From Escherichia coli (GTDB lineage: Bacteria; Pseudomonadota; Gammaproteobacteria; Enterobacterales; Enterobacteriaceae), in the NCBI RefSeq assembly GCF_003018115.1, contig NZ_CP027457.1: a DNA stretch of 64,000 bases, one strand, 5' to 3'. Every line of letters starts with the position of its first letter. The first letter of the stretch is position 1. Position numbers and translations under genes: made by a program. This document shows, piece by piece, positions 6,301 to 54,564 of this stretch. The notes under the pieces were generated by a model. It saw nothing but the letters and a program-made list of their open reading frames with translations, was not told the DNA's origin and searched no databases.

Positions 6301-8711
6301 GTCATGACGATATGAGCAACTCTAGCGGCTTTAACGAGGCCGCAGCAGCATTTTCATGGAACGGCCCGAAAAAGGCCATTAACCCTTATCTGGACCCGGC
6401 GGAAGTTGCGCCGGAGTCTGCACTTTCAAACATGATCACTCTGTACGCTGCCGATAACGAGCAGGAACAGCTGCGCCGCGATGCACTGAGTGAGCAGGTC
6501 TGGGAGCGTTATTTCTTTAATGAATCCCGTGATCCTGTCCAGCGCGAAATGGAGCAGGATAAGCTCATTAGCCGCGCAAAGCTTGCGCATGAGCAGCAGC
6601 GTTTTAACCCGGACATGGTCATTCTGGCAGATGTCAGCGCCCAGCCTACCCACATCAGCAAGCCGCTGATGCAACGTATCGAATACTTCAGTAGCCTGGG
6701 CAGGCCAAAGGCTTATTCCTGCTATTTGCGTGAGACGATTAAGCCATGTCTGGAGCGACTGGATTGTGTACGCGACAGTCAGCTATCCGCTTCTTTCCGT
6801 TTTATGGCAAGCCATCAAGGGCTTGAGGGCCTGCTGATCCTGCCTGAAATGAGTCAGGATCAGGTAAAACGCCTGTCCACCCTGGTAGCAGCGCATATGA
6901 GCATGTGTCTTGAGGTCGCTTGTGGTGATTTGTATGCCACCGATGACGTTAAGCCAGAAGAAATCCGCAAGGCATGGGAAAAGGTGGCAGCGGAAACCCT
7001 GCGTCTGGATGTTATCCCGCCTGCGTTTGAGAAACTTCGTCGGAAAAGAAACCGCCGCAAACCAGTGCCCTATGAACTCATACCGGGTTCGATGGCACGT
7101 ATGCTTTGCGCCGACTGGTGGTATCGAAAATTGTGGAAGATGCGTTGCGAATGGCGGGAAGAGCAGTTGCGTGCTGTCTGTCTGGTCAGCAAAAAAGCAT
7201 CTCCCTATGTCAGCTATGAAGCAGTGACGCATAAACGTGAGCAGCGCCGCAAGTCGCTGGAGTTTTTCCGTTCTCATGAACTGGTGAACGAAGACGGAGA
7301 CACGCTGGATATGGAAGATGTGGTAAACGCCAGCAGCAGCAACCCGGCACATCGCCGAAATGAGATGATGGCCTGCGTTAAAGGTCTGGAGCTTATCGCG
7401 GAAATGCGTGGTGACTGCGCCGTTTTCTACACTATCACCTGTCCGTCACGTTTCCATTCCACGCTAAATAACGGCAGGCCCAACCCGACCTGGACAAATG
7501 CGACTGTAAGACAAAGCAGTGATTATCTGGTCGGCATGTTTGCTGCATTTCGTAAGGCGATGCACAAAGCCGGGTTGCGTTGGTATGGCGTGCGGGTGGC
7601 TGAGCCGCACCATGACGGTACTGTGCACTGGCATCTTATGTGCTTCATGCGTAAAAAAGACCGCCGCGCCATCACTGCATTACTGCGTAAGTTTGCCATC
7701 CGTGAAGACCGCGAGGAGCTGGGCAATAACACTGGGCCGCGCTTTAAGTCTGAGCTGATTAATCCGCGCAAAGGAACGCCGACAAGCTACATCGCGAAAT
7801 ATATCAGTAAGAACATTGACGGGCGTGGTCTGGCTGGCGAGATCAGCAAGGAAACGGGTAAATCTCTGCGTGATAACGCTGAATACGTGAATGCCTGGGC
7901 GTCTCTGCATCGTGTTCAGCAATTCCGCTTCTTTGGTATTCCGGGGCGTCAGACTTACCGTGAACTGCGATTGCTGGCTGGTCAGGCGGCAAGGCTACAG
8001 GGTGACAAAAAAGCAGGTGCGCCGGTACTGGATAACCCACGTCTTGATGCCATCCTGGCTGCTGCTGATGCTGGCTGTTTTGCGACCTACATCATGAAGC
8101 AGGGCGGCGTGCTGGTTCCCCGCAAATATCACCTTATCAGAACAGCTTATGAAATTAACGAAGAGCCGACCGCCTATGGCGATCACGGTATTCGTATTTA
8201 TGGCATCTGGTCACCCATTGCAGAGGGCAAGATCTGCACTCATGCAGTGAAGTGGAAAATGGTTAGTAAGGCCGTTGACGTTCAGGAGGCGGCAGCCGAC
8301 CAGGGCGCTTGCGCCCCTTGGACTCGTGGCAATAACTGTCCCCTTGCTGAAAATTTGAACCAACAAGGGAAAGACAAATCAGCTGATGGGGACTCCAGAA
8401 CGGATATTACCCGTATGAATGACAAGGAGTTGCACGATTACCTGCACAGTATGAGCAAAAAAGAGCGCCGGGAACTGGCTGCAAGGTTACGCCAGGTGAA
8501 ACCGAAACGGCGTAAAGACTACAAACAGCGAATTACAGACCATCAGCGACAGCAGCTCGTCTATGAACTGAAGTCCAGGGGATTTGATGGCAGCGAGAAA
8601 GAAGTCGATTTGCTCCTTCGCGGCGGCAGTATTCCGTCAGGAGCAGGCCTGCGTATCTTCTATCGGAACCAGCGTCTGAAGGAAGATGATAAGTGGCGGA
8701 ACCTGTATTAA
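6297..8711 (+). CDS. A: replication initiation endonuclease (P2 gpA-like rolling-circle initiator)
   Basis: 804-aa ORF at the end of the early operon; contains the gpA-family AKYISKN region and HWHLMCFM motif. Confidence 0.8.
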
Positions 8712-17770: not shown

Positions 17771-18235
17771 ATGAAGTTTGTTGCGCTAGAACAGGCACCG
17801 GAACAGGCGGAAATCATCAGGAATACGCCGTTCTGGCCTGATGTGGACCTGTCGGAGTTTCGCAGCGTGATGCGCACTGACGGCACGGTGACGCAGCCGC
17901 GTTTAAAGCAGGTTGCGCTGTCGGCAATTTCGGAGGTCAACGCAGAGCTGTATGAGTTTCGCAGACGCCAGCAGATGCTGGGGTATGCCTCGCTGGCAGA
18001 GGTTCCGGCGGAACAGCTGGACGGCAAAAGTGAGCGCATTCAGCACTATTTCAACGCGGTTTACTGCTGGGCACGCGCCATGCTCAACGAACGTTACCAG
18101 GACTATGACGCCACGGCGTCCGGTGTGAAGCGGGGCGAGGAACTGGCGGAAGCAAGCGGTGATTTGTGGCGTGACGCCCGCTGGGCCATCAGCCGGGTGC
18201 AGGATGCGCCGCACTGCACAGTGGAGCTTATCTGA
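17771..18235 (+). CDS. L: head completion/stabilisation protein (P2 gpL-like)
   Basis: ATG 17771 with AGGAG RBS; synteny. Confidence 0.75.
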   Translation: MKFVALEQAPEQAEIIRNTPFWPDVDLSEFRSVMRTDGTVTQPRLKQVALSAISEVNAELYEFRRRQQMLGYASLAEVPAEQLDGKSERIQHYFNAVYCWARAMLNERYQDYDATASGVKRGEELAEASGDLWRDARWAISRVQDAPHCTVELI

Positions 18236-18438
18236 TGAAAGTGCGTGCGCATCAGTATGACACGGTGGACGCGCTTTGCTGGCGTCATTACGGGCGCACG
18301 CAGGGTGTCACGGAGCAGGTACTGAAGGCAAATCCGGGGCTTGCCGAATACGGCCCCTTTTTACCTCACGGGCTGCAGGTGGAGCTGCCGGACATTCCGA
18401 CCACCACCACCGTGCAGACCGTCCAGCTATGGGACTGA
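18235..18438 (+). CDS. X: tail protein X (P2 gpX-like)
   Basis: 67 aa, exact P2 gpX size and position. Confidence 0.8.
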   Translation: MKVRAHQYDTVDALCWRHYGRTQGVTEQVLKANPGLAEYGPFLPHGLQVELPDIPTTTTVQTVQLWD

Positions 18439-18441
18439 ATT

Positions 18442-18657
18442 ATGACGCTTGAGCGAATCAGCGCCTTTATCACGTATTGCATCGCCGTCGTGCTGGCCTG
18501 GCTGGGCGATTTGTCCATCAAGGATGCCTCAACGCTGGGCGGCCTGATGATTGGTGTGCTGATGCTGGCTATCAACTGGTACTACAAACACAAAGCCTAC
18601 CAGCTTCTGCGCGACGGGCAGATCTCGCGGGAGGATTATGAATCCATCAATCGTTAA
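18442..18657 (+). CDS. holin
   Basis: 71 aa with two hydrophobic helices and charged C-terminus, immediately upstream of endolysin. Confidence 0.7.
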   Translation: MTLERISAFITYCIAVVLAWLGDLSIKDASTLGGLMIGVLMLAINWYYKHKAYQLLRDGQISREDYESINR

Positions 18658-19150
18658 ACGCTGCCTTGTCGGGGCCGTGCTGGCTATTGCTGCCACGCTG
18701 CCGGGTTTTCAGCAGCTTCACACCTCCGTGGAGGGGCTGAAACTGATTGCCGATTACGAAGGCTGTCGTCTGCAGCCGTATCAGTGCAGCGCGGGTGTCT
18801 GGACAGACGGCATTGGTAATACATCTGGCGTCATTCCGGGCAAAACCATTACGGAACGACAGGCAGCGGAAGGGCTGATCTCCAACGTGCTACGTGTGGA
18901 GCGGGCACTGGAAAAGTGTGTGAAGCAACAGCCGCCGCAGAAGGTGTATGACGCGGCGGTGTCGTTTGCCTTCAACGTGGGAACGGGCAATGCCTGCAGT
19001 TCCACGCTGGTGAAATTGCTCAACCAGCGGCGCTGGGCGGATGCGTGCCGACAGTTGCCGCGCTGGGTTTATGTAAAAGGTGTGTTTAATCAGGGGCTGG
19101 ATAACCGCCGAGCGCGGGAGATGGCCTGGTGTTTACAGGGAGCAAACTGA
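18638..19150 (+). CDS. K: endolysin (phage lysozyme, GH24-like)
   Basis: EGLKLIADYEGCRLQPYQCSAGVWTDGIGNT catalytic E-D-T region. Confidence 0.85.
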   Translation: MNPSIVKRCLVGAVLAIAATLPGFQQLHTSVEGLKLIADYEGCRLQPYQCSAGVWTDGIGNTSGVIPGKTITERQAAEGLISNVLRVERALEKCVKQQPPQKVYDAAVSFAFNVGTGNACSSTLVKLLNQRRWADACRQLPRWVYVKGVFNQGLDNRRAREMAWCLQGAN

Positions 19151-19151
19151 A

Positions 19152-19529
19152 ATGAAAAAGAAAGTAATTAGCGGGCTGTTTCTGATGTTATGGATGGCGC
19201 TGTTAATCGCAGCAATGGCGTATCCGCAGGGGATTTTTCCGGTACTGGCAGCGTCCGGCGTTTGGGTAGCCTGTTTGCTGACATGGGCGGTAATTCCGGT
19301 AGCACTGGCTGCGTTAATTCAGAATGGCCCGCTCTGGCAGGAGTTAAGGGCATCTTTGCTGAAGACAATTACCCGAAAAGAAAACGTATTTATCAGTTGG
19401 GTGATGCGATTGCTGATTGTTGTAAGTCTCGCATGGACGGGGTGGGCTATTACCCTGGTCTTTTATCTACTGACCGTTATTGCCTTCTGGATCACCCGTA
19501 ATCAGATGGCGCAACAGGTAGCCGCATGA
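19152..19529 (+). CDS. lysA: LysA-like membrane protein (lysis timing)
   Basis: ATG 19152; multiple TM helices; position after endolysin. Confidence 0.65.
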   Translation: MKKKVISGLFLMLWMALLIAAMAYPQGIFPVLAASGVWVACLLTWAVIPVALAALIQNGPLWQELRASLLKTITRKENVFISWVMRLLIVVSLAWTGWAITLVFYLLTVIAFWITRNQMAQQVAA

Positions 19530-19954
19530 ACCGGTTGCTGCTGGTTGTGCTGGCGTTATTACTGGCGGCGCTGGGCTGGCAGACGTGGCGGCTGGCTGAT
19601 GCCAGCCAGACCATCAGCACGCAGGCAAACGAGCTGCAGAGCAAAAGCCAGGCACTGGCAAAGAGCAACAGCCAGCTTATCAGCCTGTCCATTCTGACTG
19701 AAACCAATAACCGGGAGCAGGCGCGGCTCTATGCCGAAGCAGAACAGACCAGCGCACAGCTGAGACAACGACAACGCCGGATCGAGGAACTGAAACGTGA
19801 GAACGAGGATTTACGCCACTGGGCTGATACTCCTTTGCCTGCTGACATTATCCGGCTGCGGGAACGTCCGGCACTCACCGGAGGTGCAGCTTACCGTCAG
19901 TGGTTGTCCGCGAGTGACGCCGTGTCGGCTGGAGCAGGCAGCACCGCGCACTAA
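19526..19954 (+). CDS. lysB: inner-membrane spanin (LysB/Rz-like)
   Basis: N-terminal TM anchor and coiled-coil periplasmic domain. Confidence 0.75.
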   Translation: MNRLLLVVLALLLAALGWQTWRLADASQTISTQANELQSKSQALAKSNSQLISLSILTETNNREQARLYAEAEQTSAQLRQRQRRIEELKRENEDLRHWADTPLPADIIRLRERPALTGGAAYRQWLSASDAVSAGAGSTAH

Positions 19955-20087
19955 CGGTGATCTGAATGCGTTGCTGGATGAAACGGAGGCCGCCTGGGCG
20001 GTCTGTGCAGACAAAGTGGACATGATTATTGCGTGTCAGGAGCGAAACAGTGAACAAACCACAATCCCTGCGCCACGCCCTCAATAA
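19797..20087 (+). CDS. lysC: outer-membrane lipoprotein spanin (LysC/Rz1-like), overlapping lysB in another frame
   Basis: GTG start; lipobox LTLSGC; overlaps 3' end of lysB and 5' end of R. Confidence 0.7.
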   Translation: MRTRIYATGLILLCLLTLSGCGNVRHSPEVQLTVSGCPRVTPCRLEQAAPRTNGDLNALLDETEAAWAVCADKVDMIIACQERNSEQTTIPAPRPQ

Positions 20088-20481
20088 AGCGGTGCCTTAT
20101 GTCCGCAATAACCCGGACAAACTGCATCTGTTTGTGGATAACGGTTCGCTGGTTGCCACGGGGGCCAGCTCCATGTCGTGGGAGTACCGTTACACACTGA
20201 ACGCGGTGATTGAGGATTTCAGCGGCGACCAGAATCTGCTGATGGCCCCGGTTTTGCTGTGGCTGAGGGATAACCAGCCCGATGCCATCAATAACCCGGC
20301 GTTACGGGAAAAGCTATTCACCTTTGAGGTGGATATTCTGCGCAACGATGTCTGTGATATCAGCCTGAACCTGCAACTGACGGAACGTGTGCTGGTCAGC
20401 ACTGACGGCAGTGTGTCGAGCGTTGAAGCTATAGCGGAACCTGATGCACCTGAAGAAATGTGGACGGTGAAACGTGGCTGA
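20050..20481 (+). CDS. R: tail completion protein (P2 gpR-like)
   Basis: GTG 20050 with AGGAG RBS; synteny. Confidence 0.75.
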   Translation: MNKPQSLRHALNKAVPYVRNNPDKLHLFVDNGSLVATGASSMSWEYRYTLNAVIEDFSGDQNLLMAPVLLWLRDNQPDAINNPALREKLFTFEVDILRNDVCDISLNLQLTERVLVSTDGSVSSVEAIAEPDAPEEMWTVKRG

Positions 20482-20920
20482 ACTGCAGAAGGTGGACGAC
20501 TGGCTGAGTGCCTTGCTGGCGAATCTGGAACCAGCCTCGAGAAGCCGCATGATGCGCCAGCTGGCGCAGGAACTTCGCCGGACACAGCAGCAGAATATCA
20601 GGATGCAGCGCAACCCTGACGGCAGCGGCTATGAACCGCGACGGGTAACAGCACGCAGTAAAAAAGGCCGTATCAAACGTCAGATGTTTGCAAAGCTGCG
20701 CACCACAAAATACCTGAAAACTGCCGCCAGCACCGACTCTGCCAGCGTGCAGTTTGAAGGCAAGGTGCAGCGCATTGCCCGCGTTCACCATTACGGCCTG
20801 CGAGATCGCGTCAGTCGTAAGGGACCGGAGGTGCGTTACGCAGAGCGTCGCCTTCTGGGTGTAAATGATGATGTTGAGGCAATGACCCGCGACATGATTC
20901 TGCAATGGCTGGCGGGGTGA
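20474..20920 (+). CDS. S: tail completion protein (P2 gpS-like)
   Basis: 148 aa; synteny. Confidence 0.75.
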   Translation: MAELQKVDDWLSALLANLEPASRSRMMRQLAQELRRTQQQNIRMQRNPDGSGYEPRRVTARSKKGRIKRQMFAKLRTTKYLKTAASTDSASVQFEGKVQRIARVHHYGLRDRVSRKGPEVRYAERRLLGVNDDVEAMTRDMILQWLAG

Positions 20921-36913: not shown

Positions 36914-37255
36914 TTAGTTACCACTCAGCGCAGGTTTGTTATCAATATTGGTCAACACACCGCTACTGTTAAAGGTCAGCGTCAGCGTTTGCTGCGTTAC
37001 ACCTTCATGACCTGGTTGCTGGCGGAAGACATAGAACCAGGTATTCGTACCAAATGGATCGGACATCAGCGGTGTACCCAATGCGTACGCAACTTGTTGT
37101 TGCGTCATGCCAACACGTATTTTGGATACGTCGTTAGCGGTCAGATAGTTCCCCTGGTTGATGTCAGGACGGTAAACCACTCGCTCCAGAGTGGAACAGC
37201 CTGCGGTCAACATCAATAGTACTGCTGCTGCAGCAGTCAGCGTTTTACAGCGCAT
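36914..37255 (-). CDS. bamE: outer membrane protein assembly factor BamE (SmpA) lipoprotein
   Basis: 113 aa with lipobox LTAGC. Confidence 0.9.
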
Positions 37256-46641: not shown

Positions 46642-47124
46642 TTAAGGGGTTGTAATCACCACTGCGACGCGGCGGTTCTCGGCGCGGCCCTGGGCGGTCT
46701 TGTTACTGGCTATGGGATATTTTTTTCCTAAACCCTGTGTGGTGAGATTGCTGCGTGGAATTTGTCCACCCATAGCCCATGCATCGGCCACGACATTCGC
46801 CCGTTTCAATGATAAGCCTTCGTTGTAACTGTCTTCACCATAGTTATCGGTGTGTCCATCCATACGGGCATGTGTTAGCCCTGTCGAGGCCAATTTGGCT
46901 GCCATGGTTTGGATCTGTTGCTGGCTTTCCGGGAGCAATTTGTAGTCATTTTTTGCGAACAGAATGGCATCTGATAAGCCCAGCGACCAGTCGCCGGCCG
47001 ATTCAGTAAATCCATAAGATTGCATAGCGGCGACTTGCTCAGGAGTAAACTTTCCCTGAGGGGACTGGCAGCCAGTCAGTATTAGTGAGGTGAAAATCAG
47101 GGGTGCTACCAGGTGCTTTATCAT
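46642..47124 (-). CDS. yfiB: OmpA-family lipoprotein YfiB
   Basis: 160 aa; lipobox LTGC; OmpA-like C-terminus. Confidence 0.9.
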   Translation of the reverse strand: MIKHLVAPLIFTSLILTGCQSPQGKFTPEQVAAMQSYGFTESAGDWSLGLSDAILFAKNDYKLLPESQQQIQTMAAKLASTGLTHARMDGHTDNYGEDSYNEGLSLKRANVVADAWAMGGQIPRSNLTTQGLGKKYPIASNKTAQGRAENRRVAVVITTP

Positions 47125-49023: not shown

Positions 49024-49383
49024 TTAATTTAATCGTATTGCGCTGGCATTTTCAACATTGTTGCAGCTGGCAGGAAAGCTTTTACCGGAAAGTCCTCGGG
49101 CATAAGTAAAATCGGTCTGGCAAGTTTTCTTTTGTCCTTCGGCATATCCTTTAAGGTATAGACCGCGATCCGCCTGTGAATCGCTAAATGCATCGTCATC
49201 TTTTATGGCGCTGCCCGATATCGCATCTTCCATACCAACATCATACCAGTCGGTGCTGGTCAAGGTTGGCGCGTGAGTATAAGGATCAATCTGGCATCCG
49301 CTAACCAGTAAAGCCAACAAGGGGGCGATAAACTTTTTCATCATTTCTTTCTCCTTTTTCAAAGCATAGCGGATTGTTTTCAA
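49024..49383 (-). CDS. yfiL: lipoprotein YfiL
   Basis: 119 aa with lipobox LVSGC. Confidence 0.75.
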   Translation of the reverse strand: MKTIRYALKKEKEMMKKFIAPLLALLVSGCQIDPYTHAPTLTSTDWYDVGMEDAISGSAIKDDDAFSDSQADRGLYLKGYAEGQKKTCQTDFTYARGLSGKSFPASCNNVENASAIRLN

Positions 49384-53826: not shown

Positions 53827-54564
53827 TTATGTATTGCTGCTGTTTGCGGCGATGATTTTCGCTACTTTTTCAGCTTGCGCATTCATCTGCATCTGACGGT
53901 ATGCATTTTCCATCAGCGGCAGCGCATCACGCGTAGCCTGGGTATCCGGGTAGTCGCGCAACATGCCTTCTACGCGGTTAACGACGGCAACCCATGCGCC
54001 ACGTTCTGTATAGTACTCGGCCACGGAGTATTCATATTTCGCCAGACGATCTTTCAGGAATACCAGACGTTTGGTGGCATCGGTGGTGTACTGACTGTTT
54101 GGATAGCCGCGCACCAGTTTGGAAAAGTCACTAAACGCAGCTCGTGCATGTTGAGGATCGCGATCGCTACGGTCAACGCCAAAGAACCCTTGCAGCGCAC
54201 TGTCATCCAGCGCCATATTGGTCAGGCCACGCATGTACATGACATAATCGATATTCGGATGGGTCGGGTTAAGGCGAATAAAACGATCGATGGCAGCCTG
54301 CGCTAACGGCAAATCGGCGTTTTTATAGTAGGCATAGATGAGATCCAGCTGCACCTGCTGCGAATACGGACCAAACGGATAGCGATTATCTAACGCTTCC
54401 AGTTGCGTTATTGCCTGTCTCCAGTTACCGTCCTGCAGCTTTTGTTGTGCAGTCGCGTAAATTTCATTTGGCGGATTATCAGGTACTTCTTCCTTTGACC
54501 CCGAGCAACCCGCCAAAAACAGGCTTAGTGTGGCGGCTGCCACCAGATATTTCATGCGCGTCAT
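53827..54564 (-). CDS. bamD: outer membrane protein assembly factor BamD (YfiO), TPR lipoprotein
   Basis: 245 aa; lipobox LAGC. Confidence 0.95.

Follow-up and report, generated by a model that had tools for sequence, protein, structure and literature searches.

The question raised by this locus is whether a short open reading frame (ORF) that opens at a GTG codon inside the phage gene lysB, in another frame, is a gene of its own, and whether its product could be the outer-membrane partner of LysB in host lysis. The locus was analysed within a stretch of 64,000 nucleotides of Escherichia coli DNA, referred to here as the window. We put the probability at about 93% that the region encodes a two-component spanin of the overlapped type, homologous to LysB/LysC of phage P2 and carried by a P2-like (Wadgaonvirus-type) E. 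coli prophage.

In the list of ORFs, lysB, the gene of the i-spanin (inner-membrane spanin subunit), occupies positions 19526-19954 on the plus strand, with an ATG start, a TAA stop at 19952-19954 and 142 aa. On the same strand lysC, the gene of the o-spanin (outer-membrane lipoprotein spanin subunit), occupies 19797-20087, with a GTG start, 96 codons and a TAA stop at 20085-20087. The LysC-like frame is therefore present where the original prediction had placed it, at GTG 19797 inside lysB and in a different frame: it opens 271 nt into lysB (19797-19526), which is the +1 frame relative to lysB, and the two genes share 158 nt. The further claim that it runs past the lysB stop into the start of gene R was likewise borne out, as lysC reaches 133 nt beyond that stop and shares 38 nt with R. 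The R frame is +1 relative to lysC, and the three consecutive genes use three frames. An o-spanin gene that starts in the +1 frame of its i-spanin gene and extends past the stop of the latter, as observed here, is the layout of the overlapped spanin class (classification of Summer 2007 and Kongari 2018), for which P2 is the paradigm (PMC3556154).

Profile searches related both products to known lysis proteins. LysC matched the NCBIfam model NF038368, 'Rz1-like lysis system protein LysC', with 124.2 bits (cut-off 27, E=1.8e-36) over residues 5-88 and profile positions 2-85 of 85, and the ORF also matched the Pfam model PF23793 LysC with 57.3 bits (cut-off 27, E=1.5e-15). LysB matched the NCBIfam equivalog TIGR03495, 'Rz-like lysis system protein LysB', with 174 bits against a cut-off of 92.75 (residues 3-136, profile positions 1-134 of 135). 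A Pfam search with LysB gave nothing significant, its sole match being a sub-threshold coiled-coil. Both proteins were assigned to PHROG 'Rz-like spanin' families, LysB to PHROG 89 with E=5.6e-46. Profiles of LysC and LysB used in a sequence search of solved structures returned no relatives, only coiled-coil noise with E of about 0.1 or above.

The P2 lysB/lysC arrangement has been described in the literature (PMC3091744, PMC3556154), and the original prediction had called the compact organisation seen here typical of it. A direct comparison agreed. In P2, lysB lies at 7922-8347, lysC at 8202-8492 and R begins at 8455, which is the same layout as in the window, and in both cases LysC has 96 aa, overlaps R by 38 nt, begins with MRT and carries the lipobox cysteine at position 21. 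The four further cysteines of LysC are at identical positions in the two proteins, and the motif ENED..W..LP..RL..RP is found in both LysB sequences. Overall identity to P2 is 40% for LysC and 31% for LysB. The two loci also differ: lysC starts with GTG here and ATG in P2, the lysB/lysC overlap measures 158 nt here and 146 nt in P2, and the lipobox is a canonical LSGC here but CAGC in P2. Mature LysC contains 7 prolines here compared with 10 in P2, with the APPAP stretch absent, and P2 LysB has two C-terminal cysteines whereas LysB of the window has none.

The LysC frame begins with MRTRIYATGLILLCLLTLSGC, a lipoprotein signal peptide. Its signal for signal peptidase II, encoded at 19797-19859 on the plus strand, starts with an n-region that carries R2 and R4, followed by the hydrophobic core LILLCLLTL and then the lipobox L-S-G-C, and the predicted acylated residue is Cys21 (TGC, 19857-19859). 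The lipobox LTLSGC and the signal peptidase II site that had been predicted from it held up in silico, since the junction between MRTRIYATGLILLCLLTLSG and CGN passes the PS51257-type (PROSITE) lipobox rule and Cys21 is invariant in the 12 phages that we compared. The predicted sizes are 96 aa for the precursor and 76 aa for the mature form. Because the +2 residue is Gly rather than Asp, sorting to the outer membrane would be expected from the lipoprotein +2 rule. In the AlphaFold2 (AF2) model of LysC the signal peptide is helical, an extended segment follows, and residues 53-88 form a C-terminal helix. This agrees with what has been published on P2 LysC, namely an N-terminal part rich in proline and, after it, a predicted C-terminal helix (PMC3556154).

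Neither the length of the ORF nor its lipobox was used on its own as evidence for lysC. Both were set aside as not significant: a frame stays open for 96 codons with P of about 0.016 per frame position, and in shuffled copies of the 64 kb about 3.6 ORFs on average pass the lipobox rule. These figures speak for a chance origin, by which 19797-20087 would be an accidental alternative-frame ORF in lysB with a fortuitous lipobox, leaving lysB and R as the sole real genes. The locus is GC-rich, with many long spurious ORFs in other frames, and several public annotations omit or shorten lysC, all of which is compatible with that view. The matches to the two curated LysC models at the E-values given above are not, and neither is conservation. 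The homologous loci of P2 and of ten further Peduoviridae were fetched and compared with the window (n=12), and the hosts of the compared phages were E. coli, Klebsiella, Salmonella, Erwinia, Yersinia, Aeromonas, Shewanella, Pseudomonas and Burkholderia. At the corresponding position each compared phage has an open +1 frame that encodes a lipoprotein signal, even where lysC is missing from the annotation, and the frame stays open down to 33% identity. Invariant in the 12 LysC sequences are the lipobox residue C21 and C37, C43, P50, N53, C70 and Q81, and C80 is nearly so. In the stretch that belongs to lysC only, lysC third positions take most of the substitutions (4/7 and 7/13), and if the ORF were due to chance, the 95-nt gap from the lysB stop to the start of R would be conserved without coding for anything. 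We regard the lysC ORF as real because of this homology (NF038368, PF23793) and conservation in 12 phages, and a chance origin retains a practically negligible probability. Apart from this locus, the background scan with the lipobox rule found four more ORFs with convincing lipoprotein signals, all on the minus strand (36914-37255, 46642-47124, 49024-49344 and 53827-54564).

The doubly coding stretch bears a further mark of selection on both frames. Compared with the phages SEN8 and ST13-OXA48phi12.1, it has diverged by 13%, and the lysB-only part by 21-28%. At lysB third positions, 17% have changed in the overlap versus 43% in the lysB-only part in the comparison with ST13-OXA48phi12.1 (Fisher p=0.0017), and 15% versus 28% in that with SEN8 (p=0.10). 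The suppression of substitutions in this stretch points to a dual-coding constraint. The block of LysB that is most conserved among the 12 phages is the one with the ENED..W..LP..RL..RP motif. The conserved LysB segment (19797-19954, residues 91-142) also encodes the LysC signal peptide and the N-terminal region of the mature protein. As this segment is doubly coding, its conservation is not to be read as evidence of LysB function alone. The overlap represents compact coding, with the signal peptide and the proline-containing N-terminal part of LysC placed in the most conserved part of lysB.

Public models of lysC in near-identical DNA place its start further downstream, at TTG 19971 (38 aa), GTG 19914 (57 aa) or CTG 19839 (82 aa, the PGAP model). 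Should one of these be correct, lysC would be real but its product would not be a normally exported lipoprotein. Such starts occur in RefSeq and GenBank records, and PHROG 952 was built from such short models. With them, however, the signal peptide would be missing or cut down to 6 residues ahead of the lipobox cysteine, and the shortest models would also lose invariant residues, namely C21, C37 and C43. The only ATG, GTG or TTG upstream of the lipobox in the lysC frame is GTG 19797. It is preceded by a Shine-Dalgarno-like GAGGA at 19784-19788 on the plus strand, within Glu-Glu codons of lysB, whose GAGG stands 9 nt from the GTG and which presumably serves lysC initiation. The lysC starts of P2, SEN8, ST13phi12.1, Wphi, LPM4, M16-3, Midge and EtG likewise have a GAGG, at a distance of 7-9 nt upstream, and P2 and Wphi, which both have ATG at this place, share the upstream GAGG and an N-terminus of the form M-[RK]-T-[RK]-I. 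Gene callers are known to mis-call the starts of embedded and overlapped o-spanin genes or to miss these genes (PMC6139136). From conservation and the Shine-Dalgarno sequence we infer GTG 19797 as the start of lysC, where PGAP has CTG, and consider a later start highly unlikely.

The gene models among the compared phages are similarly variable. In Midge and EtG the annotated 'o-spanin' CDSs have 52 aa and begin past the lipobox, and Dobby, vB_YenM_42.18 and LPM4 (loci L007, L009 and L010) have no lysC CDS at all, with the full lipobox ORF present. In the fetched loci the public models span L001 2272-2388, L002 2215-2388, L014 1740-1988, L012 740-898 and L013 731-889. There is thus no agreement among the public models of this o-spanin, and in most the lipoprotein signal is lost.

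At its 3′ end lysC runs across the 95-nt interval that separates the lysB stop from the start of R, and on through the Shine-Dalgarno sequence and start codon of R. The R gene (tail completion or tail terminator, 20050-20481, plus strand) starts with GTG 20050 in each of three public annotations, has an AGGAG at 20038-20042, inside lysC and 7 nt upstream of its GTG, and matches PF06891 P2_Phage_GpR (E=6e-47) aligned from residue 1. Its first 38 nt are the final 12 codons and the stop of lysC. Within this overlap 4/7 and 5/7 of the substitutions fall at R third positions, and therefore the R frame dominates there. The last 8-12 residues of LysC accordingly form an unconstrained tail, in which the frame reads into R until a stop codon is met; the LysC family profiles, which stop at residue 83-88, are consistent with this. 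One could also imagine that translation of lysC tunes initiation of R, so that expression of lysis and tail genes would be coupled and the 38-nt overlap, of equal length in the distantly related P2, kept for that purpose. We think this very unlikely, because the LysC tail is poorly conserved and the overlap varies among other Peduoviridae, amounting to only 8 nt in the Burkholderia phages KS14 and KL3 (PMC3091744). In P2 a 'putative transcription attenuator' is annotated in lysC. We found no terminator-like site between 19955 and 20050, and the RNA fold of 19955-20060 had no extra stability relative to shuffled sequences (z = -0.06); a counterpart of the attenuator was rejected on these grounds, and the P2 hairpin has no convincing equivalent here.

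LysB has the features that an i-spanin would require. An N-terminal transmembrane helix is predicted at about residues 4-21 (nt 19535-19588), followed by a long predicted periplasmic helix. The Kyte-Doolittle mean is 1.75 at residues 1-22 and the protein is negative/hydrophilic beyond, and the AF2 model contains a helix at 2-92 with a pLDDT of about 90 (85-93). The predicted topology is thus a single N-terminal transmembrane helix with a mostly helical periplasmic domain. LysB contains 0 cysteines, and mature LysC has four besides the lipidated one (C37, C43, C70 and C80), so the pair has at least one periplasmic cysteine through LysC. In a survey of spanins, 507 of 528 pairs had at least one periplasmic cysteine and 35 of 526 o-spanins had four (PMC6139136), and the combination of a LysB with none and a LysC with four is inside the range of that survey. 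Since LysB has no cysteine, any disulfide-linked dimerisation must rest on the four conserved cysteines of LysC.

We also compared the pair with Rz/Rz1 of phage lambda, which it resembles in its presumed mode of action and topology. Each consists of an inner-membrane protein of type II and an outer-membrane lipoprotein encoded in the +1 frame of its partner, within a lysis cassette (PMC3556154, PMC5707550). The lambda gene Rz1 is fully contained in Rz, whereas lysC extends beyond lysB into the next gene. Mature LysC is nearly twice as long as Rz1 and has a predicted C-terminal helix, and it has four non-lipid cysteines where Rz1 has one (PMC6139136). None of the Pfam family models for Rz or Rz1 matched LysB or LysC. 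By these comparisons the pair appears to be a functional analogue of the embedded lambda Rz/Rz1 family, not a member of it.

Three further genes on the plus strand precede lysB. They encode a holin (18442-18657, 71 aa, PF16080, HP1-family), an endolysin (18638-19150, PF00959 phage lysozyme) and a LysA-like membrane protein (19152-19529, 125 aa, NCBIfam DNZ54_00345), the stop of the last overlapping the lysB ATG as ATGA; together (18442-19529) they match PHROG 20, 7 and 162. According to the original prediction, the spanin pair would help to validate the annotation of a lysis cassette. This stood in that the pair lies beside holin and endolysin genes on the same strand; the cassette resembles that of P2 in part only, as the holin, the endolysin and the LysA-like protein are not P2 homologues. 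BLASTP of the three against P2 Y, K and LysA gave no meaningful similarity, and the holin and endolysin families of P2 differ from those found here. The cassette is thus mosaic, with the spanin pair as its only P2-homologous part.

Several observations concern the individual upstream proteins. The LysA-like protein resembles P2 LysA weakly, and in its C-terminal part only (E=0.002). It is a small hydrophobic membrane protein, yet PHROG 162 bears the label 'endolysin', and the name 'endolysin' given to this gene in PHROG and RefSeq looks like a propagated mislabel. The holin is HP1/P21-S-like. The lysozyme has a hydrophobic N-terminus (MNPSIVKRCLVGAVLAIAATLPG), an E41-x8-C50-x5-T56 motif and the cysteines Cys9 and Cys43; we take it to resemble SAR endolysins of the P1-Lyz type, with a disulfide-caged catalytic cysteine. 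If the lysozyme is of the SAR type, a pinholin/SAR lysis pathway would feed a P2-type spanin.

We infer the spanin function of LysB and LysC from their P2 homologues. Co-expressed P2 lysB and lysC reportedly complemented lambda Rz/Rz1 null mutants, as Markov et al. are said to have found in 2004. In the mechanism that we propose, the N-terminal helix of LysB would anchor it in the inner membrane, with its long helical domain reaching into the periplasm. LysC would be translated from the GTG within lysB, in the +1 frame, and exported; the Lgt/LspA/Lnt pathway would lipidate Cys21 and the Lol system would sort the protein to the outer membrane. [quoted passage not shown] This scheme is drawn from work on lambda Rz/Rz1 and P2 (PMC5707550, PMC6139136).

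LysB and LysC might instead be accessory regulators of lysis timing, as in the original P2 designation, and not effectors that disrupt the outer membrane. The RefSeq notes for P2 read 'nonessential; affects timing of lysis' and 'regulation of lysis'. An inner-membrane anchor combined with an outer-membrane lipoprotein signal fits a structural effector that spans the periplasm, and so does the arrest of P2 infections as spherical cells when the spanin is missing (PMC5707550). The lambda Rz/Rz1 genes were themselves long deemed auxiliary, as laboratory lysis did not depend on them unless millimolar Ca2+ stabilised the outer membrane (PMC5707550). The 'nonessential' phenotype in P2 can thus be attributed to laboratory conditions. 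Given this dispensability of lambda Rz/Rz1 when the outer membrane is not stabilised, a missing lysis defect upon deletion of the pair would count only weakly against spanin function. A purely regulatory role appears very improbable, and an influence on timing would be compatible with a role as effector.

The prophage region 18200-20600 shares 97.8% nucleotide identity with Escherichia phage 500465-1 (Wadgaonvirus, Peduoviridae), and 97.4% with Klebsiella phage 4LV2017. These two phages and the matching E. coli prophages have the identical LysC ORF, and only their gene models differ (38 or 82 aa). Of 5426 complete E. coli genomes, 1022 contain the lysBC DNA, and in 99 the identity is at least 99%. 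Where the match to an E. coli genome reaches 99.9%, PGAP already names the genes lysB and lysC and notes the overlap. The window itself is E. coli chromosome, its bases 1-2500 matching the ypjA region. These 2.5 kb contain a site-specific integrase and a hypothetical protein next to ypjA, and as the full left end was matched in 1 of 5426 genomes, the junction is rare.

The LysB/LysC pair and its arrangement are already known, and the prophage type is common in E. coli; the lysBC locus offers no open biological question beyond those that can be tested with P2. The pair confirms an intact lysis cassette in the window, and its significance lies mainly in annotation quality. What the analysis adds is a better model of lysC, which would start at GTG 19797, encode 96 aa and keep its signal peptide, together with the mosaic make-up of the lysis cassette.
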